A DNA stretch of 64,000 bases, taken from IMG/VR virus record IMGVR_UViG_3300020474_000007, positions 1-64,000 of that record; one strand, given 5' to 3'. The position numbers were made by a program, and so were the translations under genes. Each line of letters starts with the position of its first letter. Within the stretch, counting starts at the first letter, position 1. Below are positions 4,040 to 47,765 of this stretch, one piece after another. Origin of the DNA: a virus. Under the pieces are notes generated by a model. It was not told the DNA's origin. It was given only the letters and a program-made list of their open reading frames with translations, and searched no databases.

Positions 4040-4993
4040 ATGACAGCAAGAGCAAGCTCTACTTTAAAAAGTAACATTAATACTGACATCGCGGATAATA
4101 ACGCTGGAGACATTACAGCTCAAGATGTTAGAACTAATTTGGTTGACATAGTAGATTCAGTAAAAAATATAATGACTACTGAGTTATTAAGCACTGAATA
4201 TTTTCAAACAGATGTATACATTGGTAATGTAGCTGCTCAGAACGAGTCCAAATTGCATGTTACATATGGCATTCAATTTTCTGGAGGCAGTATACAAACA
4301 GAAGCTTATCCCGGCCCCGGATCTATAGATCACGGTCAACTTGATGCAGGATCTTTAGGAGATGATGACCACCCACAATACTTCCCAGTTAATGCTTCTA
4401 GGGCTATCACTGGCGATGTTAATATTAACAATCAATGGATTAGCAGTAGTGGGACTACAAATAGAGGCATGAAGTTTGTACAAGACGCTTCTCAGAATGA
4501 AGAGATTACTCTAGGTAATAATACTAGTTTTAGATTCTCCAACGGTTCAGAGCTAAGCTCTGCGATGGGAGTTGCTAAAGCTTGGATTAATTTCTCAGCT
4601 TCTGGAGCTGCTGATCCCGTTACTGTAAACTCTGCTTATAACATCGCTTCAATCAGCAGAGATAGTTCTTCTGCTGGTAAGTTTACGATTGCCTTTAAAG
4701 ATGAAACTTTTAAAGACACTCATTACGTAGCAATAGCTAACAGTAATGGCAGAAACGATGGAGACACGGCTGACGACTTTAGTATTAACACTGTTGGGAT
4801 GGTTATCCGCAACGGTGCTGGAACTAGTCTTGATCCCCATAAAATTAGCTACAGGGTAATGTCTTCTGATTCTCTGGACACCTCTGGTAGCACTCCCGGT
4901 TTTGTAGACGCTCCTATAAATAATTTAGTTGTATTTGGTTTAGGGTCTGGAGTAACTGGAGATAATATAGCATCAGTTACAGTCAATAATTAA
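4040..4993 (+). CDS. Fibre-like structural protein
   Basis: N-terminal 'ADN..GDI.A.DVR..L.DIVDS' anchor motif, 'H..L...LGDDDHPQY' fibre motif, C-terminal AKAWINF domain. Confidence 0.6.
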   Translation: MTARASSTLKSNINTDIADNNAGDITAQDVRTNLVDIVDSVKNIMTTELLSTEYFQTDVYIGNVAAQNESKLHVTYGIQFSGGSIQTEAYPGPGSIDHGQLDAGSLGDDDHPQYFPVNASRAITGDVNINNQWISSSGTTNRGMKFVQDASQNEEITLGNNTSFRFSNGSELSSAMGVAKAWINFSASGAADPVTVNSAYNIASISRDSSSAGKFTIAFKDETFKDTHYVAIANSNGRNDGDTADDFSINTVGMVIRNGAGTSLDPHKISYRVMSSDSLDTSGSTPGFVDAPINNLVVFGLGSGVTGDNIASVTVNN

Positions 4994-5023
4994 TATTACA
5001 ATTTCTCACGCTAAGGACAAGAC

Positions 5024-8000
5024 ATGTCTAATCATCCAAAGTTATTTGATAGAATCAAACAAATTAGTGATTCTACTGGTACTGGCTCATTAACCTTAAA
5101 TAGTGCGTCTGTGGGTTTTGGCACTTTTGCTAGTGCCTATGCAGATGGCGAAAAACTTTTCTACGCAATCACTGATGGGTCTAACTACGAGATTGGCTCA
5201 GGTATTTTTCATAGTGGCGTTAGTGCTATGTCTGCTACTCTAGAAAGAGGGGCAATAGTAAGTACTAATAATAATAGTAATGTTAATTTTCTATCTGGCA
5301 AAAAAGAAGTTTATGTAACTTATCCAGCTACACATTCAGTTTTTATGGGTTCTGGTCTTGCTGGTCACGAATTGCCAAAAGAAAGTGGCTTGGCTTTTTG
5401 GAAATCTTCTCATATTCTCAGCTATGATTCTAATATTATATGGAACGATGCTTTAAATACACTTGGTATTAGAACCAATAATCCCACACACGCTTTAGAT
5501 GTTGGAGGCAATGGCGGTCAACAGTCTATGATTCGTGCTTCTGGTTATGTGGTTGGTCCTACTGGAATACATTTCCCAGCAAACAACGGTGGAGACTCCA
5601 GCTATGTTGGTGGAATACAGTATAAACATTTTCTACCCAACAAGCTTGGTGATTCAAATATTAAATCCATCTTCAACATAAGTGGCGTTGTAGATGAAAT
5701 ATTAGGATTAAAAGATCAAAATAAAGGCACTTTTTTCTCTGGTCCACCTAGTGGCTGTACTGGCAGTTGCTCTCCTGCTTTGCCAAGCTTTAGACACATC
5801 ACTATGGAAGATCTTCCGCAATCTGTAATCGATTCTAGCGTTGGCGTGGATTCTCTTAAAAATACATTAAAAGTAAGTGTTCAGGATGGAAAATACAGTG
5901 TTAGTGGAGTAGGTCTAAGTGGTCAGTTAAATCCAGACATACAACTACAAAAAGGTCTCACCTATTACTTCGATGTTAATGCTATTGGGCATCCCTTTTG
6001 GATTAAAACTTCTGGTTCTATCGGAACTGAAGCTGCTTATAATAATGGCGTTTTATCAAACAATAACGGGCTGACTAATGGAACTTTAAAATTTGAAGTC
6101 CCCCATGACTCTCCTCCTATTTTGCATTATAATTGTCAGTATCATTCTGGAATGTCTGGAATTATATATACAACTTCTATAGACTCTCAGCTTCATCATC
6201 ACACCAGTGATGCTTCATTCCCACCAAAGCTAGAGAATAAACGTTTAGGTTCAGTATATTATACAGATGATAATATTTATGCTTATACAAGTGAAGGTTG
6301 GAAGTTTGCTGAATTAAATGTTATGGAATCTCAAACGCCAGCTCCACCCTCCGAACTAAGTCAAGGTGGAAGTTCTGTAGCCGATATTGCTCAATCTGTC
6401 TTTTTAGACAGCGCTGGCGCTAGCGTTAGATATAAGCCTTCTTTAATTAAAACTTTGTCCGCTTCTGGAACAGTTCTTGAGATAGATGTTTCTGGAATAT
6501 CTAACCCCTCCGGCATTACTATACAAGCTCAAAAAGCAGACACTAGTGGTAATTTTACAATCCCAGCAAGCTCTATTGGGACCATACCGAGTGGCTCTTC
6601 TTTAACAAAGTTCTCTACTACTCTTCCGCTTATAGCTGGAGTATTCGCAAGTGGTGATACTGTAAGATATAGAGCTGTACCTACACACCAAATAGCGCTA
6701 TCGTCAACAAATCATGCTTTTACAGTTCCTGCTAATAACAACCCAGATTTTTCAATCGGTATTTATCACGGAGGAAATCAAGCCTTCTCTGGGGTATACA
6801 CAGCTGACAATCTTGGCTTTGCTTATGGTTCTAATTTAAAAGACAACAGGTTGGTGGTAGAATATGAAGGCAACCTGCCTATGCTTAGTCCTGTTGACCG
6901 ACGTAATTTTCATAGCTTTCAAAGACTTGATGCTTCAACGAACATGAATGATGTTCATCAACTTGAATGCTCACAGAATGGTACTTTGTTTGCAATAAAT
7001 GCAGAAGGTGAGATGTATGCTTGGGGTAATAATCGCTACGGTCAATGCGCTAACGGAGCCACTAGCCAAGAATTTCAATCTTTCCCTAGACAAATAGTTA
7101 CTGTCTCAGACAACTCTGGAAATCCATATCGTTGGAAGAAAGTTCAGGCTGGCGATGATTATATCATAGCATTAACAACTGGTGGATTAGTTTTTCATTG
7201 GGGTAAATTGCCTGACGATACTAATAGCTTTTCTACCAGAACAGTTTTAACGCGACCAACACTATTGTCTAGTACGCAATTTGATCAGATTTCATTATTC
7301 AACAAAACGGCGGCGGCTGTGGATACTAATGGAAGTCTGTTTTTATGGGGACATACTCATCCCGCTTTTTGGCCCACACACCGAGTAGGTAATTTCTTCC
7401 GTGGTTTCCTAAATACTCAGTCAACAATGACACCGACGAATATACCTACAACGTTAACTAATGGTGGAAATGTTACCGTTGCTGATGTAAAGATTGGTAT
7501 GGATCATATATTAGTTAGAGATGGCAACAATTTGTATGGATGGGGATCTAACAGCGAGCTACAATTGCAAACGAGCCAAAATCTTGATGATGCAAATGAG
7601 ACAATCGATTTGCAAGAAATTGCTACAGATTGCGCTACTGGTCCCAACAGTTTCGTTGCTGGGGATTCAGCCACTATATATGCATCTACCGGAGGGGGTA
7701 TGTATGGTAGAGGAAAATATTTAGATTCTACACAAGATGCTACTGATTCTATGCAAAAAATTTATACTGTAAATGGTACTGTAGATCAGATATTCGCAAG
7801 TAAAGTAAGTGACAGTCAGTTTAACACCTTTGTTGCACTGCAAGGCAGACAGTGCTATGTTTGGGGTCATAATTGTGGATTCATGTCGTACAACAAAGAT
7901 TCAGTTAGGGGCAAAAAAGAAATACAAAATGCTCTGGATGGAGAAACTGAATCAGAATATTATCTATACGACTTAAGAATTTCTAACCCAATGTACGTGG

Positions 8001-8299
8001 GTGAGTTTTTGACAAATTTTGACAGCACGTATAAAGATAACGCAGTAGCCATGAATAGGTACAATTTTATGTTAGCTGCTAGAAAAATTCAATATTCGGT
8101 TTACCAAAATGGAAGTCGCGCAAACGAGTTGGAGAAAAATATGCGATCTCCACAAATTTATGCCAAAGATACCAATCTGATTACTGGTGACAACACATTC
8201 TCAAATCCTGCTTTCCTTAATTGGGGTCTGCTATTTTGTGCTACATCTGGCACTAATACGAGCAGCAGCATGGATTGGGGTAGGTTTAGACATATTTAA
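5024..8299 (+). CDS. Tail fibre/structural protein with cupredoxin-like domain and RCC1-like repeats
   Basis: N-terminal 'DRIKQ...TGTGSLTL' phage tail motif; GHPF...YNCQYHSGM type-1 copper-like ligand set; C-terminal RCC1-like repeats (GEMYAWGNNRYGQ, LYGWGSNSELQL). Confidence 0.7.
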   Translation: MSNHPKLFDRIKQISDSTGTGSLTLNSASVGFGTFASAYADGEKLFYAITDGSNYEIGSGIFHSGVSAMSATLERGAIVSTNNNSNVNFLSGKKEVYVTYPATHSVFMGSGLAGHELPKESGLAFWKSSHILSYDSNIIWNDALNTLGIRTNNPTHALDVGGNGGQQSMIRASGYVVGPTGIHFPANNGGDSSYVGGIQYKHFLPNKLGDSNIKSIFNISGVVDEILGLKDQNKGTFFSGPPSGCTGSCSPALPSFRHITMEDLPQSVIDSSVGVDSLKNTLKVSVQDGKYSVSGVGLSGQLNPDIQLQKGLTYYFDVNAIGHPFWIKTSGSIGTEAAYNNGVLSNNNGLTNGTLKFEVPHDSPPILHYNCQYHSGMSGIIYTTSIDSQLHHHTSDASFPPKLENKRLGSVYYTDDNIYAYTSEGWKFAELNVMESQTPAPPSELSQGGSSVADIAQSVFLDSAGASVRYKPSLIKTLSASGTVLEIDVSGISNPSGITIQAQKADTSGNFTIPASSIGTIPSGSSLTKFSTTLPLIAGVFASGDTVRYRAVPTHQIALSSTNHAFTVPANNNPDFSIGIYHGGNQAFSGVYTADNLGFAYGSNLKDNRLVVEYEGNLPMLSPVDRRNFHSFQRLDASTNMNDVHQLECSQNGTLFAINAEGEMYAWGNNRYGQCANGATSQEFQSFPRQIVTVSDNSGNPYRWKKVQAGDDYIIALTTGGLVFHWGKLPDDTNSFSTRTVLTRPTLLSSTQFDQISLFNKTAAAVDTNGSLFLWGHTHPAFWPTHRVGNFFRGFLNTQSTMTPTNIPTTLTNGGNVTVADVKIGMDHILVRDGNNLYGWGSNSELQLQTSQNLDDANETIDLQEIATDCATGPNSFVAGDSATIYASTGGGMYGRGKYLDSTQDATDSMQKIYTVNGTVDQIFASKVSDSQFNTFVALQGRQCYVWGHNCGFMSYNKDSVRGKKEIQNALDGETESEYYLYDLRISNPMYVGEFLTNFDSTYKDNAVAMNRYNFMLAARKIQYSVYQNGSRANELEKNMRSPQIYAKDTNLITGDNTFSNPAFLNWGLLFCATSGTNTSSSMDWGRFRHI

Positions 8300-8312
8300 T
8301 ATAGGAGAAAAG

Positions 8313-10646: not shown

Positions 10647-10663
10647 TGTAGCAGGAGCATTTA

Positions 10664-12086: not shown

Positions 12087-12087
12087 A

Positions 12088-13053: not shown

Positions 13054-13061
13054 TAGTTTTT

Positions 13062-13077
13062 GTGTATAAATAAATAG
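13062..13077 (+). promoter_or_regulatory. GTGTATA-N6-TAG motif, candidate late promoter (copy 2)
   Basis: GTGTATAAATAAATAG, intergenic, 30 nt before the tail tube ATG. Confidence 0.65.
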
Positions 13078-13106
13078 ATTTTCTTACCACTGAAGGAGAG
13101 TTTATA

Positions 13107-14231
13107 ATGCCCAATCAAAGAATTTTCTACGCCTGCCAAGCAGTTGCGATTGAAGCCCCGCAAGCAGGCGGGACTGTAGAAGTCGCTCATGGTGTGCAGA
13201 GCGTTGGAGTTACCACTAATTTTAGCCTTGAACAAGCTTTTGAATTAGGTCAGATTCAAATTTATGAAAATATTGAAGGTGTGCCTGATATTGAGGTGAC
13301 TTTAGAAAAAGTTCTCGATGGCTATCCACTGCTATTTTTCTTAGCCACAAGAGGCGCTGGCCTTTCTGCTACCCTTGTAGAACGATCAAAACTGCGATGT
13401 AATGTTGGTTTGGGCATTTTCGATGACGGTGTAGACGTTGTTGGTACTGATGGAGCTGGTGGCACTCAAAATGCAAACGCAGAAGTTATTGCTTCTGGTA
13501 TGTATATGAGTAGTGTTGCTTATAATATTAATACTGATGGCAATCACACTGAAAGTATCTCCTTGGTGGGAAATCAAAAAACTTGGAATTCCTCGCCTGT
13601 TCTTGTAACTCAAGCTAGAGTTCAAGCTGCCTTCCACGAAGGAGGCGGTCCTTCCAACGTTGGTGGTGATATACCTCATAATAATAAAGCTGGACAACTT
13701 CACGGTGGTATTCAACGTAGAGAAAATGTAAACTGGGCAGCTTCAATTCTTCCTGCTAGTATTATCAGGGCTATTGATCCCCTTCATAAAGCCGTCACGG
13801 ACGTTGCTTATAATCCTGTTGTTAATAATAACACTGACACCGATGGGAAACCTATCGCTCATGTTCAGAGCATCTCCATCAGTACTGATTTTAGTAGAGA
13901 AGATATCAATGAACTTGGTCGTAAAGCCCCTTACTATCGTTCACCTAACTTCCCGATTGAGGTTACTTGTGATATTGAGGTTCTTTCTACAGATGGCGAT
14001 TGGGTACAAGCTTTTGAAGAAGGTTATCTAACTGGCGTAAATGCTGGTAATAATACTCCAGAAGAAACAATTACAATTACTTTAGACGATGGAACCAAGT
14101 TTGAACTTGGAGCTAAGAACAGACTTTCTTCAGTTTCTTACGGCGGCGGCGATGCTGGTGGTGGAAATGCTACTATGACATTTAGTTATTCGACGTTTAA
14201 TGACTTGACGGTAACTTCGCCTACTCAATAG
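13107..14231 (+). CDS. Major tail tube protein with internal duplication
   Basis: Two similar segments, HGVQSVGVTTNFSLEQAFELG and AHVQSISISTDFSREDINELG; strong AAGGAG SD; lies between the terminator and the tape measure. Confidence 0.7.
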   Translation: MPNQRIFYACQAVAIEAPQAGGTVEVAHGVQSVGVTTNFSLEQAFELGQIQIYENIEGVPDIEVTLEKVLDGYPLLFFLATRGAGLSATLVERSKLRCNVGLGIFDDGVDVVGTDGAGGTQNANAEVIASGMYMSSVAYNINTDGNHTESISLVGNQKTWNSSPVLVTQARVQAAFHEGGGPSNVGGDIPHNNKAGQLHGGIQRRENVNWAASILPASIIRAIDPLHKAVTDVAYNPVVNNNTDTDGKPIAHVQSISISTDFSREDINELGRKAPYYRSPNFPIEVTCDIEVLSTDGDWVQAFEEGYLTGVNAGNNTPEETITITLDDGTKFELGAKNRLSSVSYGGGDAGGGNATMTFSYSTFNDLTVTSPTQ

Positions 14232-14268
14232 TTATAAAAACTTTAACAAATTTTACAGGAGAATTAAT

Positions 14269-36122: not shown

Positions 36123-37856
36123 ATGATTAATATATATTCACCCACAGTGAAGAATGGGACTCAACCCGTTGTTATTAGACCAACCCCATTTGTGTCTATA
36201 GGTTCAACCCCCATACGTAATAGCATTGGAACTCTGGGTTCAACTTATAATATTACTTTAACTGGCACTATACTTCCGGGTCAAGGCTCACCTTTTATAG
36301 ACGGAACATTTCACGACACCGCCTCTAGTAGACCGGCTGATGAAGTTAATGTGTCTGGAGAATTACACCAACAGGTTTTTCGCAAACAAAACGCATTACG
36401 AGAATTATTTGCAACTGATGGCGTTAAGATAGAAATTGTGAATCTAGAAGGCAGTGATGCTCCTAACGTAGTTTTCTACGCAAAGATGCAGTCTATTAAC
36501 TTTGAGCCGGGAACATACATTGATTTATGTAGATATACTATAAATTTAACAACCAATTATATTCAAGATATAGACGGCGATGGTGTCATATGGGCAGACG
36601 GGAGAATGCTCAACATAGAAGAAGATGAAAATAAAACTGGCGCAGATAGATTTTATGATACAACTGCTTATACTCCTGACGCACTGAGGGCAAAGTTCGG
36701 GGGTTTTGTTTCTAATTTTACTGAAAACTGGTCTTTAGAAGTTGACGAATCGTTAGGTGAGACCAGTGGTGTTCACGGTATTACTCCAAGGGCTTATATA
36801 GTAACAAGGAACACAAGCGCTACTGGTAGAACCGATTTTAGATTTGACTCTGGAACTGACTCAGAAAAACACGAAGCGTGGGATGAGGCTAAAAGATTTT
36901 TAAGCACAAGTGTTTTAACCGATTTGCCGACAAAGTACCCCGGATATGCTGGCAGCACTGGTCAGGGTACTGGCGGGTTTGGAGCTATGACGCTCGGGCT
37001 AGTATCTCAGTTTAACGGGTGCAATCATTCAAGAACGGAAAATATTGATAAAACAGCAGGCGTTGTTAGTATTACTGACAGATGGTTAATGTGTAGAGAC
37101 ATTGCTTTTGAAAGTTATGATGCGTCAATTAGTTCGGAAACTACTGGTCCTTTTGTTTCTGTTAATATTAATGGAACTATTGCAGGCGTTAGCACCAAGC
37201 CTGCTGGTGCAGTAAGATATGGTGGTCAAACTAGTTCTTCTACTGCCAACAAGGTAGAGAACGCTTTAGCCAAATGGAACCTTGTTAGCGGTAGTGGTAC
37301 TTATGATATGAGTTCTCATATATTTAAACGGGCAAATGCATTAGTTGCGCCCCACTTAAACCCACAGCCATTATCTGTGTCTCTAAGTAGAAATGATTTT
37401 ACAGGAGAATTAAGCTATGCAATTACTTATGATAATAGACCTTTGAATATTGTAACTGAAGCTATGTCAGAGACCATATCTATTAATGATACATATCCCG
37501 GCGATTTATATGCTATGATCCCCGTTATAGGCAGGGTTACTGGGCCAGTTTTACAGTATATAGGAGGTAGGACAGAATACCAAAGAAATGTTTCGTTAGA
37601 ATTAATTTTTGATTATACAGATATAGATTATTCTGTTACAAGTACCAATGATGCAAAAAGAACATCTTTGTTACTTTCCAAGCCATCAGTACAAGAACCC
37701 GCTAGAACTCAGATAGCAAATTTATTAAAATCCGTAAGCCCTTTAAAAGAGCCGGGAATCAGGAAATGTTTCTTACAAGCGCCTCAAGAAAGTTGGTCTC
37801 CAAGAGATGGTCGATACAGTTTAAATGTTTCATGGGTATATGAATTGGATCAATAA
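36123..37856 (+). CDS. Putative tail tip/baseplate structural protein
   Basis: 577 aa, beta-rich, with repeated 'ITL.GTI'/'VNINGTI' and 'E.WS' strands reminiscent of tube/Dit-like folds; synteny. Confidence 0.45.
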   Translation: MINIYSPTVKNGTQPVVIRPTPFVSIGSTPIRNSIGTLGSTYNITLTGTILPGQGSPFIDGTFHDTASSRPADEVNVSGELHQQVFRKQNALRELFATDGVKIEIVNLEGSDAPNVVFYAKMQSINFEPGTYIDLCRYTINLTTNYIQDIDGDGVIWADGRMLNIEEDENKTGADRFYDTTAYTPDALRAKFGGFVSNFTENWSLEVDESLGETSGVHGITPRAYIVTRNTSATGRTDFRFDSGTDSEKHEAWDEAKRFLSTSVLTDLPTKYPGYAGSTGQGTGGFGAMTLGLVSQFNGCNHSRTENIDKTAGVVSITDRWLMCRDIAFESYDASISSETTGPFVSVNINGTIAGVSTKPAGAVRYGGQTSSSTANKVENALAKWNLVSGSGTYDMSSHIFKRANALVAPHLNPQPLSVSLSRNDFTGELSYAITYDNRPLNIVTEAMSETISINDTYPGDLYAMIPVIGRVTGPVLQYIGGRTEYQRNVSLELIFDYTDIDYSVTSTNDAKRTSLLLSKPSVQEPARTQIANLLKSVSPLKEPGIRKCFLQAPQESWSPRDGRYSLNVSWVYELDQ

Positions 37857-37858
37857 TC

Positions 37859-38413
37859 ATGTATGATCGTGTTAATAAAAATTTAACTACTACATCAGCC
37901 CCGTCTTTTGACAGGTCTGCCTTTCCTATTGTAGACTCTGGTGGTTTTTTACACGTAAACAAACAAGCTCCTATCACTGAGGGAACTTCTTTATTTCCTC
38001 CCACTTCTGGGGCCATGTGGCCTTCTGGTGAGGCCAATTTTCAAACATTTGATGAAAGTAAGACTCCTCTTGCGTATCCTGCATCCCTTAGCGGTTTAAT
38101 GTCTTCAGGAACTTTAGTAAATGCTCCTAGTGGTAATTTATTACTAAATAGCGGAATTAGAGATGGGTTGAGCAATGCTGCGGCTACAAAAGTTGAAGCT
38201 GATAAAAGAAATATTGTAGATGTTTTTAATCCGTATATTCACTATATTGCAAAAGATGGAGCTAGTGCTACTCAAGGTGCTATTGGTAGATCATCCCCTA
38301 CGTCGCTTCCTTTTTATGTAAGGTATAATGACAAGTATGAATCTCCACGTTTATTATTTGATAAATATAAAAACATATATGTAGAGCTAGATGCTAGCGG
38401 GGTGCAGTCATGA
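37859..38413 (+). CDS. Ser-Gly-rich hypothetical structural protein
   Basis: 184 aa, 8 SG dipeptides; coupled to its neighbours. Confidence 0.6.
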   Translation: MYDRVNKNLTTTSAPSFDRSAFPIVDSGGFLHVNKQAPITEGTSLFPPTSGAMWPSGEANFQTFDESKTPLAYPASLSGLMSSGTLVNAPSGNLLLNSGIRDGLSNAAATKVEADKRNIVDVFNPYIHYIAKDGASATQGAIGRSSPTSLPFYVRYNDKYESPRLLFDKYKNIYVELDASGVQS

Positions 38414-41400
38414 CAAATAGTATAGCAAGATCTTCCCACTACTACGGAGATGGCTGGCCCTCGTCTGGACTTGTCATACCTCAAGGTTTATCTACTGGTG
38501 GCTGGACGAGACAATCCAGAGGTTATCCGCAACAAACATTTCTTGGCGCTAGTATACGTAGTTTCAATATGCAGGCGGGTTTTGGAGATACCAGTTCAAC
38601 TCTTACCGTAGATATGGTTGTTGACGAGTTTAATAAATCTGACGGAACTAAACTTGGACTTGGTGATGATGTATACCATAGCGGTGAGCATGATTCTTTT
38701 ATGGCTCCTTTTGTCGGATCTCCAGTATTCTTTAAATTTGGTCGTGATTTTGCGACCGTAACAGATGCTTTTCAAACCGCTTATGATGTTGCGTTTAGTG
38801 TGTCTGGGATAACTAACTCTGGAATTACTTGGACAGAAGGAGGCAATGCTTACGACTCTATTGACCAAATTACTTCTTTGTCAAGCGGTGAATTTTTTAA
38901 TTTAGAAACTAGCGGAATAGACACAGTAGTAATAGATGAAAATATAGGAAGACTTCATACTACTTTTGGAGGCATATTGCAATCTTACATTCAAAATAAA
39001 AGCCCCAATGGTGAACCTGTTTATACTGTTCAAGTGGTTGACCCCAGAGAAATACTTTCTAATGTAAAACTTATTTTAAATAACTATGCTGGCACTACTT
39101 TTGAATCTGATAATATCTACAATGTTTTTGGATTTCTTGAACATAATCTAACTAGAACACAGACTTCGGAAATGGTTTCAACTTTCGGCCCAGCATCAAA
39201 ACTGGAAAGACTCGTTGATACTAGTGGAAATGTATCTTTTTCTGGCACAGATACTTTTACTGGTGATGGAGAAAATGGACTTATTTCTACGAATCCAGAT
39301 CCTAGTGGTAGTCAACAAAGTGATTTTTTTGGACCAGATAAATTTCCAATGACGGGTACGGGATTTTCTAGAAGGTCAGATCAAGGTATGCCATATTACA
39401 GAATAAATCAAGCGATAAGAGCTTTGATGGAAAGAGATGTGGACTTACCCAAGGTTTTCAAAACTACAAAATACGGCGATAAAATAAACTTTAGGGGATT
39501 TAAATATGTAGTTGATTTAGAAGGTTTGCCTAAATTGCCAGCATTTTATTATATTGATTACGATGAAATGAATCTGATGGATCTCTGTTTGGAGATATGT
39601 GAGGCTACTAATCATGATCTTTTTGTTAACTTGCTTCCTATAATTGATAGGCCAGAGGTTCAAAAGACATACGATGACAACATTCAAGCTATGAATGATA
39701 CAGTGACAGTTGTTGGCGACGATGAAGAAGAGGAGAAAGAATTAGTTGCGGGACTTATCAAAGTTACTGCTATAGACAGAAGTAAGCCGCCTGATATTGG
39801 TGCTGTGCAAAAATATTTAAATGATTTAGATGTTCAAGGAATTGTTGTAGAACAAAAAGACTTGGGATATGAACTGTCTAATGTTACTACTGAAAAATTT
39901 ATACTTGGTGGTCAAGAAACAAATATGCATTTATTTAGCACTCAGGCTGATCGCGGAATGTATGCGAGAAATCAAAGGGGAGAGGGTGATGGAGCTGAAC
40001 CACTTGGAACACAGTGGGATTTATTAAACTCTTTAAAACAGCAATTAGTACCATACTATGGCACTCTTAGCGATGGAGTGGTATCAATTCCAAAGGGATA
40101 TGGCTCATACCAGCAAATACTTTTAGATACAACGTCTTTGTTTGCTAATGGCGTTGGGGATTACTACGTTGCTACAGAGATGGAGCTAAGATGCGCTTTG
40201 ATATCTTACGAAAAATGGGTTCAGTTTTTAATGGAGTACAACGATAAATATCTAGAGTCCGTGGAGGAAGATGATCTGATAGAGGGCAACGCCGTAGAAG
40301 GAACAGCTCCTAGCGATTTGCCTGATGGTCTAGGGGACAAAGATTTGGTTATCTCCAATAATTATGCGGTTACTGTTCCTAGATGTGTTTGGCCTACATA
40401 TAGCTCTTCTGGAGTTAGTAAATTTGGAGAAGATGACCTTCCAACTAGCGCTTGTCATCCTCCATATGGATATCCTCTTTATTATAAAAGAGCAACCAAG
40501 CTAGGCATACCTCAAGCTGGTTTAGCGAAATTGTCATACACTTGGAATTCCCAGATTCTTCCGAAGATAACTAAGTTAAAAGCTAATAAAGACGGAGAAA
40601 ATTACCAGACATTACTTTCAGATGGCTGGACAGATTTCAAGAAAGATATTTTCCAAGATTCTAATGGAAATACTGATCCATTGCTTTCTTCCTTCCTTGG
40701 TTATGTTGAAAACGCCGTTTCTGGATATGCTACGGATGTTGCGATAAATATTATAGAAGACAGAGTTTCAGATATCAATAAAGCCGCAGCTTCTTTCCCC
40801 TCAATGTCTAGAAAAGCTACTGCTAATGCAAAAAAAGTTCATTCGCATTTAAAAAATATAGCTTCGGAATGTTTGGGTAAAAAGTTTCTTGTTAAGCTAC
40901 CTCACAAAACATCTAAATATTTTAATTACAATATTGAAAATGACGGCGGTATGCATATGAGCGGGCCTTATGGATTTAACAGAGTTACGCCTTCTGGAAG
41001 AGATTATCAAAACAATCAACAAGACGCAGGAGCTGGTAAAAAAAACTCCGCTTGGATGCAAGACTTTTTAGAACCAGTTCGCGCTGCTGGTAATTCTGGG
41101 GTAGATGTTAATCACAAGTCTAATTATAATGGAGCTGCTAATTCTAATTATGATTCTATAGACGACACTATACGATTCAACTACCTCCCATCTGCTCAGG
41201 GTGGATTTTTTAATCACAATCTGATGGAAGAAATCATGCCTCTGACTTTAGTTAATTCTGGACTACCATCTGGAATGAAACAATTACTGATACCCAATGA
41301 TCTAAAACATTTTGTTAACGACAACGGAAGAATTTCCTGCTATGTCAGATTTGATAATAGTCAGGATTTGTCTTTTGCAGGAATTAATCCTAGTCATTTT

Positions 41401-43110
41401 AGTCAACAGGTTATATCTGATTTGCCAGAAGGATCTGAGATTGTAGATGTCACACCAGATATTGCTGAGCAACTAGACAACCTAGAAGAAAGTAGCACAA
41501 ATTTTACTCGTTTAGAATCTAGTCTTCCTGAACAATATAAAAACGAATCTGCCGCCAAAGATAATACAAAAAAATCTGTAGCATTTGTTAGGGCTAATAT
41601 AGATGAAAAACTGTATTTGGTTCCACGGGCTGTTAATGCGCCGACCGTTGTATTTGCACAACAGGTTATAGAAGAAGATGCGTGGACAAAACCCAAGCCT
41701 GTGTTAAACTCTGCTGGAGAAGTAGAGCTGACTTTGCCTTTAAAGCATTCAATTTTTATACCTGCTTCCGGTGAGGGGGAAACCATTAGTATTTTCGATT
41801 GGAAGAGGAATTACAATTACATCACATCTTCTTGGCTGATAGACACGGACAAGTCCGCATTAGATTATACGTCTATCTACGCTTTAATTACCTTGCCGGG
41901 AAGAATACAGCCTACAAAAGATTCTAGATTTAGAGATGGTCCTTATCAACTTTTTAAACCAGACACATTTAAACATTTCTTAACTATGGACGTTGTTAAA
42001 GGAGTTCAAGGTTTTGATAAACCAGCGTATCAAAATGGTCCCCCTACTAACTTAATTAATTGCTTTAGTGAAAACAGACAAAAGGCAGCTAAAAGCCTTC
42101 ACGAAAAAGCTTTGTCTCAACTTTCATACGCTTTTCCACAGCGTATAGACTTGATGAGTCCCTCTCCTGTTTTTCCAGATTTTATTAGTCTACCATTAAT
42201 GTCTAAAGAAAGATGCTACGGACCTTGGGTGGCTACTCAATTGTATGAGACAAGTAGCGGAACTACTGTAAGCAGGAAATATAAAGATCTTGGCGGTTCC
42301 GTAGAAGTCATTAAGGATGAATTTTTGGCTCCTTGGAATTTTGCTGGATATCCCAACATGAATGAGATGGGCAAGCAAAAGGCTAAGTTCTCAAATAGTT
42401 TATTATTATTGTCTGAGCGCGGAGGATTCGTTGTTCCTTCGGCTCCCAGTGGAGTTACCTTAGCCAATGAGTTGAGAAGTACAGGACCATTAGTTACTAA
42501 TATAGGAGTTGATATATCTACTAATGGAATAAAAACAACTTATCAGTTAGATTTGTACACCAATAGTTTTGGGAAATTACAAAAACAAAAAGAACAACAG
42601 CTATCAAGAGCTAGTAGAGATAGACAAAAATCTTTAGATGAAAAGAACGGTTTAATTAGAAGAAGTGCTGGAAAAAATCAAGTAGATTTAAATTATGAAA
42701 TATTAAGACAAGAAATAGACACTAAGATGAAAGAGCTGTCACAACTTATTGGAGCTACAGATCACACTATGACATCTAGGACAGATCTTGTTGCCAGTGT
42801 AAAGTCTACCACGGTGGAGATGTTTAACGCTTCTACAAACCAAAAAGAGCAAGTTAAAAGAACTGGTGTTGACATTTCTACACAAGCTCCAGACACGGCT
42901 CAAAAAGTAGGATCTATGTTTCCAACTCAACAAGCAAACCAAAAAGCTTACTACAATGCTGCCGGGGGATCTATGTCAGAGATGTATACTCCAGTTTCTA
43001 TGGAGCCATATCATCCTAATATGCCTTCAAAACCAGCAACAAAAGCTACAGACGCAGAGAGATTTCATGAAAGAACAGCAGAAAAAACTATAACTATTTA
43101 CGAGGACTAA
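38410..43110 (+). CDS. Putative baseplate hub/tail tip protein
   Basis: 1566 aa; N-terminal 'FLGASI.SF....G....SSTLTV..V.D' and C-terminal 'VTNI.V.I...GI.TTY.L' strands typical of hub (gp27/Tal-like) proteins; C-terminal coiled coil. Confidence 0.5.
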   Translation: MTNSIARSSHYYGDGWPSSGLVIPQGLSTGGWTRQSRGYPQQTFLGASIRSFNMQAGFGDTSSTLTVDMVVDEFNKSDGTKLGLGDDVYHSGEHDSFMAPFVGSPVFFKFGRDFATVTDAFQTAYDVAFSVSGITNSGITWTEGGNAYDSIDQITSLSSGEFFNLETSGIDTVVIDENIGRLHTTFGGILQSYIQNKSPNGEPVYTVQVVDPREILSNVKLILNNYAGTTFESDNIYNVFGFLEHNLTRTQTSEMVSTFGPASKLERLVDTSGNVSFSGTDTFTGDGENGLISTNPDPSGSQQSDFFGPDKFPMTGTGFSRRSDQGMPYYRINQAIRALMERDVDLPKVFKTTKYGDKINFRGFKYVVDLEGLPKLPAFYYIDYDEMNLMDLCLEICEATNHDLFVNLLPIIDRPEVQKTYDDNIQAMNDTVTVVGDDEEEEKELVAGLIKVTAIDRSKPPDIGAVQKYLNDLDVQGIVVEQKDLGYELSNVTTEKFILGGQETNMHLFSTQADRGMYARNQRGEGDGAEPLGTQWDLLNSLKQQLVPYYGTLSDGVVSIPKGYGSYQQILLDTTSLFANGVGDYYVATEMELRCALISYEKWVQFLMEYNDKYLESVEEDDLIEGNAVEGTAPSDLPDGLGDKDLVISNNYAVTVPRCVWPTYSSSGVSKFGEDDLPTSACHPPYGYPLYYKRATKLGIPQAGLAKLSYTWNSQILPKITKLKANKDGENYQTLLSDGWTDFKKDIFQDSNGNTDPLLSSFLGYVENAVSGYATDVAINIIEDRVSDINKAAASFPSMSRKATANAKKVHSHLKNIASECLGKKFLVKLPHKTSKYFNYNIENDGGMHMSGPYGFNRVTPSGRDYQNNQQDAGAGKKNSAWMQDFLEPVRAAGNSGVDVNHKSNYNGAANSNYDSIDDTIRFNYLPSAQGGFFNHNLMEEIMPLTLVNSGLPSGMKQLLIPNDLKHFVNDNGRISCYVRFDNSQDLSFAGINPSHFSQQVISDLPEGSEIVDVTPDIAEQLDNLEESSTNFTRLESSLPEQYKNESAAKDNTKKSVAFVRANIDEKLYLVPRAVNAPTVVFAQQVIEEDAWTKPKPVLNSAGEVELTLPLKHSIFIPASGEGETISIFDWKRNYNYITSSWLIDTDKSALDYTSIYALITLPGRIQPTKDSRFRDGPYQLFKPDTFKHFLTMDVVKGVQGFDKPAYQNGPPTNLINCFSENRQKAAKSLHEKALSQLSYAFPQRIDLMSPSPVFPDFISLPLMSKERCYGPWVATQLYETSSGTTVSRKYKDLGGSVEVIKDEFLAPWNFAGYPNMNEMGKQKAKFSNSLLLLSERGGFVVPSAPSGVTLANELRSTGPLVTNIGVDISTNGIKTTYQLDLYTNSFGKLQKQKEQQLSRASRDRQKSLDEKNGLIRRSAGKNQVDLNYEILRQEIDTKMKELSQLIGATDHTMTSRTDLVASVKSTTVEMFNASTNQKEQVKRTGVDISTQAPDTAQKVGSMFPTQQANQKAYYNAAGGSMSEMYTPVSMEPYHPNMPSKPATKATDAERFHERTAEKTITIYED

Positions 43111-43112
43111 GC

Positions 43113-46100
43113 ATGGCTTATAAAGGAAATTTAAATATACCAATTGAAGAAAATCATTTAATTGTTATAGATGATCCAGATTTAATAGAATTAGGCATAC
43201 CCGCGTTTTCTAAAAAGGGTTTAGATCAACTAGTAAATGATCCGTCTACATATAAAGGTCTTGAACAGTTTCTTTTAAAAAAGAAGGGTAATGATGCTTG
43301 CGCTAGTGGAGAACTAGATCCACAAGAAATAAAAGATCTATTTTTAGGTAAATCTTTTCAGCCTATTTATGGAAAATTTAATTTAGGAGATAAAAAATAC
43401 GAAGCTTCTCCAATTCCTGTTAGTGTTGCCGATGGAGATAGTACAATATCAGACTTGATTGATCAACACGAAAGTGTTATCAATAATATTGGTAATTTCG
43501 CCGCTGTTTCAGATAGCGATTTTGCCCAAGTCATTCAAGATATAAATAACAGTCCATCTGGATGTTTAAATTTTACAACAGACTATGGAATTGCTGGGAG
43601 GGTTTATTTCCAAAGCCCTAAAAACAAAGATTCACGAAGGCTGGTGGTTTCTGCTGGAGATCCAATTTTAGCCACTTCTCCGAGACGAGCCACAGGGGGT
43701 AAATACACATTTTCTAGCACAGAGAAAAAACAATTGAATGATAGTGCAGAAGATGGTTTTGGACAAATCGGCTGTTTTGATCCATACAATGATAAACTTC
43801 CTAAAGCTGACACGGATGTAGTTGGGAGGATGCGACTAAATTACAACAAAGCTCTTGGGTATTTTGAGTCTGGTTCTCAAACTATTTTGGCTAGACTAAC
43901 AGACGATCTTGATCCTGTGGACGCTAGAGAATTAGATATGGATGCTGTAGATGTATTAAAACCCAAAGATTTATATGATAAAGAGTCACCAAGTTTTATA
44001 TCTGCATTCACTTCTTCTTTTGCTATGCCTTTATCTGCACATAATGGTAATCCTCACACTCATGGTCCTAATATTGTTAATTCGACTACGTATGAAAAAG
44101 AATATATTAGAGTTGTTAATAGGGCTGGAAGAGGCTGGAAGAAGGGCGAATTGGTGTTATGCACACTGATTGACAATGAGTGGATTGTTCATGATTTTGG
44201 ACCCGCACAATTAAGTCAAGGAAAAGTACAATTAGGCAAGTGGCAATTTGTTAAAATGCTTGCAGATACTGACGCTTATTTTGCAGACGATAGACGATTT
44301 TGGCTAAACGCAATCTTTTATGAAAATGGAGCAAACCCATACGATAGGGCTATTAAGGGTACAGAATATCCCATACGTATGAGAGCTAGATTTTATGAAT
44401 CAATAAACAGTTACGATAGCGCCACTTTGAAATTAGATGGTCTAAACAACACATTTGCTATATGCTCAGAAAACGTAAGTGTTATCAATTCTCTTGATAA
44501 AATGTCAAAAACAGCACAGATGCCCGATAATGTTGCCGATTTGACAGATTTCCAGCCTAGTACTAGATATGTTCAAACTAGTGCATTTGACTTACTAGGC
44601 AAACACATGGGCGGTAATAATGATTTAGGAAATATCATCGGAAGGACAAATAATCAAGTTAGTCCAGACCCCTTGGCTCAAGATCAAAGAGCAGAGTTCG
44701 CCCAAGATGTTCCATTCTGGTTTGGGCCGATACTTCCAGACGGTTACGCATCAGCCACAACATTACGCTTATTGTCTAGCGGTATTAACGCAATTGCTAT
44801 GGGTTCAGGAATTGTTACTGGCGGGCTATTAGATGTTACTAACAATAGTTGTGATAATAATATGTTATCAAGAATGTCTGCTGATGCGCCTCCTGACGAC
44901 GACGATGATGACGGCGATGATGACGGCGATGATGACGATGGCAGTGATGATGATGACAACGATAATGCCACAGAAATTCCTCCCGTCTTTGGTGCAGACG
45001 ATGACGATACTGTTTGTCTTGAGGAATTATTCATGTTTGCCAATCGATTCGATTACTCGTTAGCCCAACTACCAGCAGAGTACGCTCTTAATGCTTCACC
45101 AAGCGGCTTGTTTGGTTATCCTGTAGAACACATATCTCAACTTGTGTACCACGAAAGATCGTCAACAAACGCAGGATCTCCTATAGCCAAAGCCTATAAT
45201 ACTTTTTTGCGTTCTGATTCAAATAGATTTCATTATCTTGCAACACCAGACGGAGCTAGTGAATTTTTAGATCTACAGCCAATTAATAAAACCAATATAC
45301 AATTCTCTCCATTGCAATATGTTTTTGCAGGACACGCTGATAAGAGTCTTTCAAAAGAGATTTTAGAAATGGGCGATACTCATGCGGGGCAAAGAATAAT
45401 TCAAGATTATGGTAATACTTGGGATATGGCTAGAGAGTTATTAGCCAAGGTGAGGAGTCAAAGCAGTTTTTGGGGAAATATGCTTACAAGAGAAGAGGCT
45501 CTTACTAGTCATAGTTTTTCGGCTGATAGTACTGGCTTTATACCTAAAGGACATACTAATATAGTTTGGGATAAATATATTTTTAGAAAACCTAGAAATC
45601 ACGTTATATCACCTTATGCCTTTTATCAAACTGATCCAAGAGGAGATCAATATGATGGAGCGAATTTAATGCATATAACATACGCCAAAAATACTGCTAG
45701 AATTGGCTCAGCGGGTGTTGTTCAATTAAATTGCACTTTTGATTATGGACTTCCTTACAGGTCTAGGAGTATGGGGGGCCAAGTAACACCTATTAGCGCC
45801 TTGCCAATTATGGGTATGCCTGTATTTGGTGGAGGTACAAATCCAATCAGATCTTATACTAATCCTCAGTGGGGTAACGAAGGTTCTACTTTACAAGAAT
45901 ATTCTGGAGGATTGACTTTATACGCATCGCTGTTTGACCACTGGCCTGAAGAAGACACAATATGTGATCCGCGATATGATTGTCCTTTGCATTTTCTTCC
46001 GGGCAAATTGCATGTAGATGACGTTGTTATGAAAACTCAAACGGAAGACGTTGGTAAAGTCTACGAAGGGGATTGGGTTCCAGCTCATCCATCAGGATTA

Positions 46101-46934
46101 TATACTACAGCAAAGTTGGCTCAGGCAGACTATGAAAGAACTATAGATGTTCCAGAAACTACTGTTGATTTTAGAGTTCCCACGTATGGACACCCATTTG
46201 AACCTGATGTAGACAACACTATTGTCCCAGAGGGGCAACTTATTAATAGAGTTGGCGTTGCAACAGGGTCAGAATACACAGAGACCGTTGGGATACTTAG
46301 GCCCAAAGGAGAATGGAGAATTAATCCAATTTGTAGGGGCATGATGGTTACTAGTTCTCACGGCTTTAGGTACTGGCAAAGAGTCATTGGTCTAAATCCT
46401 GATGACTATACTGTAGTTACTAGGGGAGCAGGAATGTTGCCTTTGCAAAAAGTGGAAGACAGTACTAATAATTTTGTATTAGAGGTTAATAGTGACGACA
46501 CAGGGGATGGAACTAGTTTTACATTTACTGATAAAGGAGAAGGATTCTCGCCTTCTAGCTTTGATAGGATGCATACTAGGGCTGACGAGAATGGCGATGA
46601 ACAGATATATCATGGCGTTTTGGTAACAATACCGGGAGTTGGTGAAGACACTGAAATCGTATTTCACACTGGTCTTGTGTGGGACAAACCGCGAGAAACT
46701 ATCTACCCAAAATTCCACGGAAAAGTTCTCTGTACAGAGCCAGATGCAGCAGAGGAAGAAGGGTACAAAACAGGGTCAAAAAGCACCAGTATAGGCATAT
46801 TGGAGAGGAGTCCTGACGGGTTATATGACATTTTCTTACATTTTGCCCACGATGTAACGTTTGTGGATTGGTCTCGCGGAGCTGACACTATAGGGCTTTT
46901 GCAGCAAGTAAATTTAAATATAGGCGCTGCTTAA
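43113..46934 (+). CDS. Large tail tip-associated protein with poly-Asp tract
   Basis: 1273-aa ORF following the hub; 'KGELVLC.LID.EW' motif; function not recognised. Confidence 0.5.
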   Translation: MAYKGNLNIPIEENHLIVIDDPDLIELGIPAFSKKGLDQLVNDPSTYKGLEQFLLKKKGNDACASGELDPQEIKDLFLGKSFQPIYGKFNLGDKKYEASPIPVSVADGDSTISDLIDQHESVINNIGNFAAVSDSDFAQVIQDINNSPSGCLNFTTDYGIAGRVYFQSPKNKDSRRLVVSAGDPILATSPRRATGGKYTFSSTEKKQLNDSAEDGFGQIGCFDPYNDKLPKADTDVVGRMRLNYNKALGYFESGSQTILARLTDDLDPVDARELDMDAVDVLKPKDLYDKESPSFISAFTSSFAMPLSAHNGNPHTHGPNIVNSTTYEKEYIRVVNRAGRGWKKGELVLCTLIDNEWIVHDFGPAQLSQGKVQLGKWQFVKMLADTDAYFADDRRFWLNAIFYENGANPYDRAIKGTEYPIRMRARFYESINSYDSATLKLDGLNNTFAICSENVSVINSLDKMSKTAQMPDNVADLTDFQPSTRYVQTSAFDLLGKHMGGNNDLGNIIGRTNNQVSPDPLAQDQRAEFAQDVPFWFGPILPDGYASATTLRLLSSGINAIAMGSGIVTGGLLDVTNNSCDNNMLSRMSADAPPDDDDDDGDDDGDDDDGSDDDDNDNATEIPPVFGADDDDTVCLEELFMFANRFDYSLAQLPAEYALNASPSGLFGYPVEHISQLVYHERSSTNAGSPIAKAYNTFLRSDSNRFHYLATPDGASEFLDLQPINKTNIQFSPLQYVFAGHADKSLSKEILEMGDTHAGQRIIQDYGNTWDMARELLAKVRSQSSFWGNMLTREEALTSHSFSADSTGFIPKGHTNIVWDKYIFRKPRNHVISPYAFYQTDPRGDQYDGANLMHITYAKNTARIGSAGVVQLNCTFDYGLPYRSRSMGGQVTPISALPIMGMPVFGGGTNPIRSYTNPQWGNEGSTLQEYSGGLTLYASLFDHWPEEDTICDPRYDCPLHFLPGKLHVDDVVMKTQTEDVGKVYEGDWVPAHPSGLYTTAKLAQADYERTIDVPETTVDFRVPTYGHPFEPDVDNTIVPEGQLINRVGVATGSEYTETVGILRPKGEWRINPICRGMMVTSSHGFRYWQRVIGLNPDDYTVVTRGAGMLPLQKVEDSTNNFVLEVNSDDTGDGTSFTFTDKGEGFSPSSFDRMHTRADENGDEQIYHGVLVTIPGVGEDTEIVFHTGLVWDKPRETIYPKFHGKVLCTEPDAAEEEGYKTGSKSTSIGILERSPDGLYDIFLHFAHDVTFVDWSRGADTIGLLQQVNLNIGAA
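44895..44963 (+). repeat. Poly-Asp (GAY)n low-complexity tract
   Basis: Encodes DDDDDDGDDDGDDDDGSDDDDND. Confidence 0.95.
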
Positions 46935-46938
46935 TTTC

Positions 46939-46954
46939 GTGTATAATATTCTAG
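46939..46954 (+). promoter_or_regulatory. GTGTATA-N6-TAG motif (copy 5)
   Basis: GTGTATAATATTCTAG, intergenic, 29 nt before ATG 46983. Confidence 0.65.
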
Positions 46955-46982
46955 ACAATTGTTCTATTTCAAGGAGAATCCA

Positions 46983-47765
46983 ATGGCAGCAGAGATTAAA
47001 TTTTACGGAAATATTTTGAATCTAGCAGATAATTCGGCTCCAGATGGCAGGCTGATTGCTCATGGAGCAGGATCTGGTCTAGGCTTTTATGGGCCGGGAT
47101 TTCAGGTTTCTGTGCCAGTAGGAAGCTACCAAGACAAAACATATATTACAGACGAAAACGGAGCAGCTGAAGGTTCAGAGCTTTCAAACACAATGCCCGG
47201 AGTTGTTGGCGCGGTTTCTGAAGGCGTTGTAACACAAGGTGGTACAGTCAAAACTGGTGGTGGTGGATCTGCTGCAACTGCTATTGCTTTAGATCAACTG
47301 CCTAACTATCAATGTCCTCTTAATATTAGATTTACAAACGATGTGGCTGTAAAAACACAAAATTGTAAATTAAGAGTATTTAATAGAGCTAATAAAGATT
47401 ACAAAGCAAAAGAAGTTACCACATACGTTTATGAAGCTCGTCACCCTTCAGTCACTCCTGCTGATGGTCAATTAGCCCATCGAGCGAACGCCCATAATGT
47501 TTGGACTACTTTTCAAGGGCGAGCTGCTAGCGATCCGCTTTTAGGCAATGTGCCTACAGATATGAATTTGACCCCTTCTCCCGGTCAGTATGGCAAGAAC
47601 GGAAATTCCAGCGACACTGTTGCAGCTAAAGGCTGGAGTTCTCAGGAGGGTGCGCCTCACTTAGCGACAAGGCACGATTGGTATTTAGCCATTGCTTCTT
47701 CGCCTGATACAATTGGTAGCAAAAAAGACTATGGACTATATTATACTCTAGAATATTTAGAGTAA
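46983..47765 (+). CDS. Putative virion structural protein
   Basis: Start moved to ATG 46983 (AAGGAG SD) from the track's TTG at 46959; G/A-rich; has its own copy of the motif. Confidence 0.6.
   Translation: MAAEIKFYGNILNLADNSAPDGRLIAHGAGSGLGFYGPGFQVSVPVGSYQDKTYITDENGAAEGSELSNTMPGVVGAVSEGVVTQGGTVKTGGGGSAATAIALDQLPNYQCPLNIRFTNDVAVKTQNCKLRVFNRANKDYKAKEVTTYVYEARHPSVTPADGQLAHRANAHNVWTTFQGRAASDPLLGNVPTDMNLTPSPGQYGKNGNSSDTVAAKGWSSQEGAPHLATRHDWYLAIASSPDTIGSKKDYGLYYTLEYLE

Follow-up and report, generated by a model that had tools for sequence, protein, structure and literature searches.

Mycobacteriophage virions are reportedly glycosylated by phage-encoded glycosyltransferases, as Freeman et al. are said to have described in 2023; the glycoproteins of that system are said to be the capsid and the tail tube, and the glycosyltransferase genes reportedly accompany the structural genes. 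Gly-containing turns occur in fibrous repeats such as the adenovirus fibre shaft. In bacteria, cytoplasmic hyper-O-glycosylation of the autotransporters TibA and AIDA-I is carried out by the heptosyltransferases TibC and AAH. Their acceptor residue in beta-helix repeats is Ser rather than Thr, and one of the mapped sites lies in N-S-G-G (PMC4358343).

Here, we analyze the Ser-Gly dipeptide (SG) in a window of 64,000 nucleotides from a lineage of uncultured marine phages with ~160-kb genomes, for which neither DNA nor protein searches returned relatives among GenBank phages. A preliminary description of the window had counted SG by hand and proposed that it marks exposed virion surfaces for glycosylation by the phage's own enzymes. 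Every one of those counts was reproduced, and they lie far from chance.

Ser-Gly is over-represented in a subset of virion proteins

The SG-rich set comprises four proteins, all encoded on the plus strand: a fibre protein of 1,091 aa (5024..8299), a giant distal tail protein of 4,337 aa (23109..36122), a 184-aa protein (37859..38413), and a distal tail protein of 1,566 aa (38410..43110). Pooled, they contain 126 SG against 55.7 expected (observed/expected [o/e], 2.26; z = 9.4), and SG ranks first among the 400 dipeptides by over-representation. The reverse dipeptide, GS, is at expectation in this set and enriched in no protein. SG is thus enriched both over composition and over GS, in a manner that is Ser-specific and directional, and none of the sequence-level observations that the preliminary description had held to speak against its proposal was made. 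Few dipeptide biases that one could find in a protein set would be as strong or as specific. The remaining 15 plus-strand proteins show no excess when pooled (51 SG versus 51.0 expected), nor do the 20 minus-strand proteins (19 versus about 17), and none of the nonstructural proteins, enzymes included, has one. The sites share an extended context, with a hydrophobic residue at -3, Ala, Tyr, or Phe at -2, Pro at -1, Val, Ile, or Leu at +1, and Phe at +2; Pro alone precedes 24 of 125 sites where 6.2 are expected. Spacing within the window proteins indicates no significant clustering (22 versus 18.6; P = 0.21).

The fibre protein has 23 SG versus 11.8 expected (shuffle z = 3.6), 21 of them within residues 1 to 589 and 2 beyond. 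It consists of a conserved N-terminal anchor (about residues 1 to 266), a cupredoxin-like region (about 300 to 440), and an RCC1 propeller (638 to 952); the cupredoxin matches in a fold search of the N-terminus were weak. The giant protein carries 76 SG versus 31.7 expected (z = 8.5) and 33 GS. Its N-terminus combines a cupredoxin-like domain with a poly-Thr (T)nAAP linker, FG-GAP-like propeller repeats follow downstream, and its C-terminal end weakly resembles phosphodiester glycosidase, the only match, itself weak, in PDB sequence searches with two profiles of the protein. An AlphaFold model of its C-terminal 558 aa, built with 11 orthologues, reached a pLDDT of 44, which is too low for mapping sites. 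The 184-aa protein has 8 SG and no GS among 14 Gly (1.7 SG expected; shuffle z = 5.6), and two of the 8 fall in the family core SG-x-x-x-SGE[AS]N[FY]. The excess is modest in the 1,566-aa protein (19 versus 10.5; z = 2.8) and is not shared by its orthologues, relatives that a pattern scan missed entirely and that BLAST inside the fetched loci recovered.

The preliminary description contrasted SG-rich exposed proteins with SG-poor lumenal ones, and this contrast did not hold up. The tape measure protein (16957..23094, plus strand; 9 SG versus 15.4 expected) is SG-poor, but so are the probable tail tube protein (13107..14231, plus strand; 1 versus 2.9), the probable capsid protein as read in a complete relative, and the RCC1 tip domain of the fibre. 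Gene order bears on the tube assignment as well: in the complete relative G017, only a few genes separate the orthologue from the tape measure gene downstream of it. Three distal tail proteins likewise lack an excess: one of 577 aa (36123..37856, plus strand; 5 versus 4.7), one of 1,273 aa (43113..46934, plus strand; 8 versus 7.8), and one that is SG-poor by count (46959..47765). The 317-aa protein encoded next to the fibre gene (4040..4993, plus strand) has 5 SG versus 3.6 expected, and several of its orthologues are SG-rich (9 to 11 versus 2 to 3.5). The excess therefore does not follow exposure, and only some of the virion proteins show it.

The excess is clade-wide and resides in old sites

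SG is in excess in 12 of 12 orthologues of the giant protein and at 80 of 80 fibre loci. Across 150 family representatives, which include mutually nonhomologous distal modules, the o/e is 2.52, and the lowest value for any member of the fibre family is 1.37, whereas control fibres from lambda, T4, T5, and SPbeta reach only 1.25. In 11 giant orthologues (about 35% identity), the o/e is 2.30 for SG, 0.76 for TG, about 1.0 for GS, 0.72 for NG, and 0.87 for DG. SG occupies 33 sites in 8 or more of these 11 sequences, compared with 2 such sites for GS and 1 for NG. Sites found in a single orthologue number 156 for SG and 158 for GS, which gives no indication that SG is still being gained; the excess stems from old, fixed sites. 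Among 71 members of the fibre family, S59-G60 never varies, and conservation is 90% or higher at S173-G174 and S220-G221.

At the conserved sites, Gly is kept and Ser lost in 80 alignment cells, four times the number for the reverse (20). Ser is replaced there by Asn (19%), Thr (15%), Val (12%), Gly (9%), and Asp (7%), with Phe also seen; ordinary Ser is replaced by Ala (19%) and Thr (18%), and Thr is no commoner a substitute at SG than elsewhere. Ser in SG is nevertheless conserved at 55%, compared with 44% for Asp in DG and 29% for Asn in NG. In the fibres of relatives, SG opens each unit of short tandem repeats (for example, a 15-residue unit repeated about 35 times), and the o/e in such arrays rises up to 4. 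No Pfam family matches the arrays, and a PDB sequence search with an SG-repeat protein returned nothing. Hundreds of uncultured marine phages, none with a cultured relative, share this conserved bias.

Glycosyltransferase genes lie in the replication module

The preliminary description had placed glycosyltransferases on the opposite strand, and they are there. Two minus-strand genes encode GT4-family enzymes: one of 375 aa (53300..54427; PF00534, 1.4e-12; phrog_2170), for which a further search matched only the generic GT-B nucleotide-sugar half, and one of 553 aa (54424..56085; PF00534, 8e-11), with weak matches to BshA and Gtf1. The 3' part of a GT2-family gene (63653..64000, minus strand) crosses the window end, and contig positions 64118-64507 match PF00535. 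The same strand carries genes with family matches to an FkbM-family methyltransferase (60761..61387) and a PAP2-family phosphatase (62104..62820). The latter was considered as a sign of a membrane or envelope target and dropped, since it has no strongly hydrophobic segments.

The glycosyltransferase genes adjoin a split DnaE, with primase, helicase, and RecA further along the contig on the same strand, and they belong to the replication module. Exact copies of GTGTATA-N6-TAG, a putative structural-gene promoter motif, occur only ahead of plus-strand structural genes; the glycosyltransferase genes have none, and coregulation through this motif finds no support. Each genome in the clade has 3 to 4 GT4 and 2 to 4 GT2 genes. 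GT4 was found in 26 of 27 relatives' records and in every sufficiently complete relative; all near-complete relatives have both GT4 and GT2 among their core genes. The SG excess and the glycosyltransferases are both present clade-wide, and this universality leaves no contrast and makes their co-occurrence uninformative. DNA glycosylation as the target of these enzymes is not supported, as four complete genomes contain no thymidylate-synthase-type hydroxymethylase.

A proposed structural turn or a possible modification site

The explanation that we favor, at roughly an even chance, is that Ser-Gly is a lineage-specific structural turn motif in the fibre, spike, giant tail, and decoration proteins. 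Ser followed by Gly would form a tight turn or strand boundary where other phages use Asn-Gly, Asp-Gly, or Thr-Gly; Gly would provide the unusual backbone angle, and the small polar Ser would cap the turn, commonly with Pro ahead of it and a hydrophobic beta-strand to follow. The tandem fibre repeats of some relatives may have arisen by multiplication of this unit. We infer this turn geometry, and likewise that modification would be dispensable. The fraction of Gly preceded by Ser, Asn, Asp, Pro, Thr, or Gly is 0.471 in the giant orthologues and 0.471 in the lambda, T4, T5, and SPbeta fibres. Its division differs, with 0.223 versus 0.113 for Ser, 0.049 versus 0.087 for Asn, 0.061 versus 0.080 for Asp, and 0.048 versus 0.085 for Thr, and SG thus substitutes for NG, DG, and TG within an unchanged total. 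This constant share argues for the turn motif, as do the origin of the excess in old, fixed sites, the retention of Gly over Ser, Asn as the main substitute, the context of Pro at -1 and Val, Ile, or Leu at +1, the tandem arrays, and the lack of a link to exposure. An AlphaFold model of the fibre N-terminus (pLDDT, 74.7 overall and about 96 for residues 11 to 100) places 8 of 14 SG within 2 residues of a strand end (background, 0.33; P = 0.057), with the invariant S59-G60 inside a strand. On the other side, a building style should appear in all beta-rich proteins, and yet the tube, the probable capsid, RCC1, three distal tail proteins, and the enzymes have no excess, while mutually nonhomologous distal modules do. 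The stronger conservation of Ser in SG than of its Asn and Asp counterparts hints at a role for Ser beyond the turn. If structural, the motif would define a family of SG-based fibre repeats that had gone unrecognized, and a simple sequence marker would be at hand for recognizing fibre and decoration proteins in this dark clade.

The alternative closest to the preliminary description, which we consider possible but doubtful, is that SG, often as P-S-G-hydrophobic, is the acceptor for cytoplasmic Ser O-glycosylation by the phage GT4 and GT2 enzymes, producing a glycan coat on fibre, spike, and decoration proteins throughout the clade. A cause independent of fold would account both for the limitation to certain virion proteins and for the spread over nonhomologous modules, but the proteins without SG excess include the probable capsid, the tube, and the most distal domain, RCC1. 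The Ser specificity and directionality (SG 2.30, TG 0.76, GS about 1.0), the o/e far above that of unrelated phage fibres, and the unusual conservation of the Ser are consistent with a sequon, as is the TibC/AAH precedent of Ser-not-Thr modification in beta-helix repeats with an N-S-G-G site (PMC4358343); Thr is not favored as a substitute, however, Val and Phe also replace the Ser, newly gained sites are not in excess, and one invariant SG is modeled within a strand. The several GT4 and GT2 genes per genome, the FkbM methyltransferase in the window, and the lack of a hydroxymethylase pointing to DNA would fit such a coat. Against this, the genes are embedded in the replication module without the motif that precedes structural genes, their co-occurrence with SG is confounded, and the acceptor of a GT4 enzyme cannot be read from sequence. 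As a sequon, SG would be the first acceptor motif in phage virion glycosylation to be defined by sequence, and a conserved multienzyme sugar module would gain a function.

Three further causes appear less probable still. Asn-Gly deamidates and Asp-Gly isomerizes readily, so long-lived extracellular fibres may have switched to SG for durability. The depletion of NG (0.72) and DG (0.87) beside enriched SG would fit such a switch, as would the values in control fibres (NG, 1.29; DG, 1.37) at an equal total turn-type share; it is improbable, since TG and PG are depleted too, and the capsid and tube, equally long-lived, show no excess. The switch would be a deduction of ours. Even more improbably, SG could tag proteins for a different modification, for a fibre-assembly chaperone, or for the phage subtilase, whose gene (8187-10646) lies beside the fibre gene. 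The limitation to a protein subset would suit such a tag; nothing specific points to it, and we know of no chaperone or protease that recognizes Ser-Gly. The least credible cause is a nucleotide by-product, in which the clade's complete avoidance of CCWGG converted Pro-Gly (CCW-GGN) to Ser-Gly (TCW-GGN), or a DNA-motif or codon-pair bias acted. CCWGG is indeed absent from the 64 kb (about 59 expected), and Pro-Gly is never encoded with CCA or CCT and is rare (9 versus 27 expected). The PG deficit of about 18, however, equals a quarter of the SG excess of about 70, no excess is seen in other proteins on which this constraint also acts, and TCTGG and AGTGG are near Markov expectation. A codon-class test largely refutes CCWGG avoidance as the cause: AGY Ser, which is not one step from CCN, precedes Gly at 0.18 to 0.20, compared with 0.21 for TCT, and both Ser codon classes occur at 17 of the 33 conserved sites. 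The signal acts at the amino acid level and involves both codon classes.

Comparison with known systems

The SG sites resemble generic X-Gly and side-chain-capped (Asx/ST) turns in that a small polar residue and Gly precede a hydrophobic strand, Gly outlasts its partner, the partner swaps with Asn, Asp, Thr, or Gly, and the total share is as in other phages. They differ in the near-exclusive use of Ser and in the restriction to a subset of virion proteins.

The Ser-Gly dipeptide is also common to the animal proteoglycan xylosylation sequon, an analogy on which the preliminary description drew and which does not carry over. The phage flanks are not acidic (acidic fraction within 5 residues on either side, 0.096 versus 0.110 protein-wide), SGxG is not enriched (5 of 126 sites versus 9.7 expected), Pro rather than Gly is enriched at -1, and the enzymes belong to another class. 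The mycobacteriophage system offers the parallel of a tailed phage whose several glycosyltransferase genes could serve to modify its own particle. In the present lineage, SG is scarce in the probable capsid and tube, and the glycosyltransferase genes lie in the replication module.

TibC and AAH share with this lineage a bias toward Ser over Thr (SG 2.30, TG 0.76), a point of consistency rather than evidence of modification, and their short-repeat beta substrates may have a counterpart in the tandem SG-initiated fibre repeats of the relatives. They are GT9-like heptosyltransferases, while the phage enzymes are GT4 and GT2; neither the window's contig nor any of four complete relatives contains PF01075 (Glyco_transf_9-like). 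Unlike TibC and AAH, the phage glycosyltransferase genes are not adjacent to their putative SG substrates. It is conceivable, if rather unlikely, that P-S-G-hydrophobic forms a code similar in logic to that of TibC and AAH and served by different enzymes.

Over-representation of Ser-Gly in a subset of virion proteins

A recount reproduced all Ser-Gly (SG) counts of the preliminary description, and we derived an expectation for each protein from per-protein shuffles. The fibre protein encoded from 5024 contains 23 SG dipeptides against 11.8 expected, the giant protein (from 23109) 76 against 31.7, the 184-aa protein (from 37859) 8 against 1.7, and the 1,566-aa protein (from 38410) 19 against 10.5. 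With these four proteins pooled, SG ranks first of 400 dipeptides for over-representation (observed/expected [o/e] 2.26, z 9.4), and Gly-Ser (GS) is at expectation. The pooled SG sites have a hydrophobic residue at -3, Val, Ile, or Leu at +1, and Pro at -1 in 24 of 125 cases (6.2 expected). No SG excess was found in the other pooled + strand proteins (51 against 51.0 expected) or in the minus-strand proteins (19 against about 17). The observation thus stands, and it reaches much wider than was known at first.

CheckV estimates the 74.5-kb IMG/VR contig, of which the window spans the first 64 kb, to be 45% complete. The window's + strand carries a tail/fibre module with large proteins reaching 47765: the fibre gene (from 5024), an 819-aa subtilase (S8; 8187-10646) directly after it that, as called, overlaps its end by ~110 bases, a probable tube gene (from 13107), the tape measure gene (from 16957), and the giant gene (from 23109; 4,337 aa). 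Replication and sugar genes occupy the minus strand, namely two GT4 glycosyltransferases, DnaE split into two genes that flank a DEDDh-type exonuclease gene (56451-60250), an FkbM methyltransferase, a PAP2 phosphatase, and a GT2 glycosyltransferase at the window edge. Past the window, the contig encodes a nuclease, a dNMP kinase, a primase, DnaB, a DUF1559 pilin-like gene, and RecA. We found no relatives among GenBank phages; IMG/VR relatives are numerous, with sizes up to 174 kb and terminal repeats in two. In at least two of them, the giant tail gene is two consecutive ORFs (locus L032:9989-21291; complete relative G017, 59021-70140).

Conservation of Ser-Gly across the clade

The family of the fibre gene comprises 182 representative clusters at E below 1e-30, in which the N-terminal ~266 aa are conserved and the distal parts can be swapped. 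For 150 representatives, SG reaches an o/e of 2.47 in the head and 2.52 in the distal parts, which are unrelated to one another; GS is not in excess (0.9-1.0), and SG is in excess in all 80 viral loci of the family (lowest o/e 1.37). The distal part of some relatives is a tandem array with SG at the start of each short unit (L019:234-4079; L015:1622-7582; L011:2102-7207; L020:510-4763; L007:6390-7865); in one, a 15-residue unit is repeated ~35 times, giving 64 SG against 15.7 expected. The units differ, the 15-residue one starting SGVAISGW and others SGALN, SGYLN, SGLTA, or SGVLR. As these arrays match nothing in Pfam or the PDB, they appear by sequence to be a fibre repeat family not described before.

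The giant protein orthologues, at 28-48% identity, show an SG excess in 12 of 12 (z 3.4 to 9.3) and a GS excess in none. In an alignment of 11 nonredundant orthologues, 47% of aligned cells keep SG, compared with 5-34% for other dipeptides, and Ser is conserved at 55% before Gly versus 34% overall. Of the SG sites, 33 are shared by 8 or more of the 11 sequences; the corresponding counts are 2 for GS and 1 for Asn-Gly (NG). Singleton sites are equally common for SG (156) and GS (158), indicating that the entire SG excess consists of old, fixed sites.

Origin of the Ser-Gly excess

The 64-kb window contains no copy of the motif CCWGG (about 59 expected), which occurs three times in the complete 161-kb relative and is missing from 61 of 80 related loci (window; loci L023-L034 and L040-L119; G017), an avoidance of a Dcm/EcoRII-type site across the clade. 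Pro-Gly (PG) is consequently never encoded as CCA/CCT-GGN and is depleted, and a single C-to-T change could turn PG into SG as a nucleotide by-product. However, AGY Ser codons precede Gly at the same rate as TCT, the PG deficit equals just a quarter of the SG excess, other proteins that are equally constrained show no SG excess, and both Ser codon classes are represented among orthologues at half of the conserved SG sites. A nucleotide-level cause is essentially excluded, and the codon-class, PG-deficit, and unaffected-protein evidence indicates selection at the amino acid level.

We compared these proteins with 17 fibre and tail proteins of lambda, T4, T5, and SPbeta. Pooled, these controls reach o/e values of only 1.25 for SG and 1.05 for GS, and none exceeds z 2.2, so that the plain beta-turn preference named in the preliminary description as a possible refutation does not account for an excess of this magnitude. 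Among X-Gly pairs in the giant orthologues, Ser alone is strongly enriched (2.30), while Asn (0.72), Asp (0.87), Thr (0.76), and Pro (0.44) fall below expectation. In giants and control fibres alike, 0.471 of all Gly follow one of the residues S, N, D, P, T, or G, yet Ser before Gly is doubled in the giants, with Asn, Asp, and Thr correspondingly reduced, so that SG fills the positions that classical turn pairs hold in other phages. At conserved sites, loss of Ser beside a retained Gly is four times as frequent as the opposite case; the replacement is most often Asn, with Val and Phe also seen, and Thr replaces Ser at a rate no higher than at ordinary Ser positions. The most economical reading, to which we give about an even chance, is that SG would be this lineage's structural turn motif in fibre-type virion proteins, where other phages use classical turn pairs. 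A minor variant, in which NG and DG were swapped for SG for durability, appears improbable.

The model of the giant C terminus was too low in quality for SG mapping. A fibre model (first 440 aa, 71 sequences, pLDDT 74.7, about 96 for residues 11-100) places 8 of 14 SG sites at most two residues from a strand end (background 0.33, p = 0.057), 4 in loops, 1 in a short helix, and the invariant S59-G60 inside a strand. The predicted placement is compatible, though not decisively, with a turn or strand-boundary role; an enzyme, too, would act at exposed turns. Contrary to the earlier proposal, SG does not track exposure: in the window, no excess is seen in the tube-like protein, the RCC1 tip domain, or the proteins from 36123, 43113, and 46959. 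In the 161-kb relative, only five ORFs reach an SG z of at least 3, namely a small "head protein" adjoining the probable capsid gene, a 1,098-aa spike-like protein, the fibre, and both halves of the giant protein; its probable capsid protein (2 against 1.9 expected) and minus-strand proteins are not enriched. That only some of the virion proteins carry the excess is the chief weakness of a purely structural reading.

Two virion proteins carry cupredoxin-like domains, at the giant N terminus (23109-23430) and at fibre residues ~320-385 (5984-6180), both with a His/Cys/His/Met ligand pattern (HPF ... C-x2-H-x2or3-M); Foldseek weakly matched plastocyanin and pseudoazurin (E 0.03). The giant C-terminal end (35690-35975, residues about 4194-4288) is weakly similar to the phosphodiester glycosidase (NAGPA "uncovering enzyme") fold (E 7e-4) and may form a receptor-degrading tip; in SPbeta, the distal tail gene yomE is likewise annotated as a phosphodiester glycosidase.

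Glycosyltransferases and known glycosylation systems

The preliminary description took SG for a surface sequon glycosylated by the phage's own minus-strand transferases, which we consider possible but rather unlikely. Records of relatives carry GT4 genes in 9 of 10 and 17 of 17 cases (including 9 of 9 at least 90% complete), the sole exception being a contig that stops just past the tail genes, and GT2 genes are in every genome checked. Because transferases and SG excess both occur throughout the clade, finding them together is not informative. The GT4 genes lie directly downstream of DnaE and are not preceded by an exact copy of the + strand structural-gene motif, and their PDB matches are restricted to the generic nucleotide-sugar-binding half. 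Neither a thymidylate-synthase-type hydroxymethylase nor a heptosyltransferase is encoded in the genomes examined. Most relatives have three adjacent GT4 genes and a distant one, while the window contig and its closest relative have two adjacent only (window 52457-56085 versus genomes G002, G004, G008, and G010-G027); the two small ORFs at the third position have no glycosyltransferase signature. After the giant's cupredoxin-like domain lies a mucin-like poly-Thr (T)nAAP linker (23430-23830; 74 Thr in 140 residues), a region not in relatives, whose alignment begins near residue 240. As a candidate for O-glycosylation, this linker is more conventional than SG.

The proposed analogy with the proteoglycan Ser-Gly sequon does not hold, because the flanks here are not acidic and SGxG is not enriched. 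TibC/AAH, whose enzyme family is absent from the examined genomes of this clade, provides the closest working precedent: it glycosylates Ser, not Thr, in beta-helix repeats, with one site being N-S-G-G (PMC4358343).
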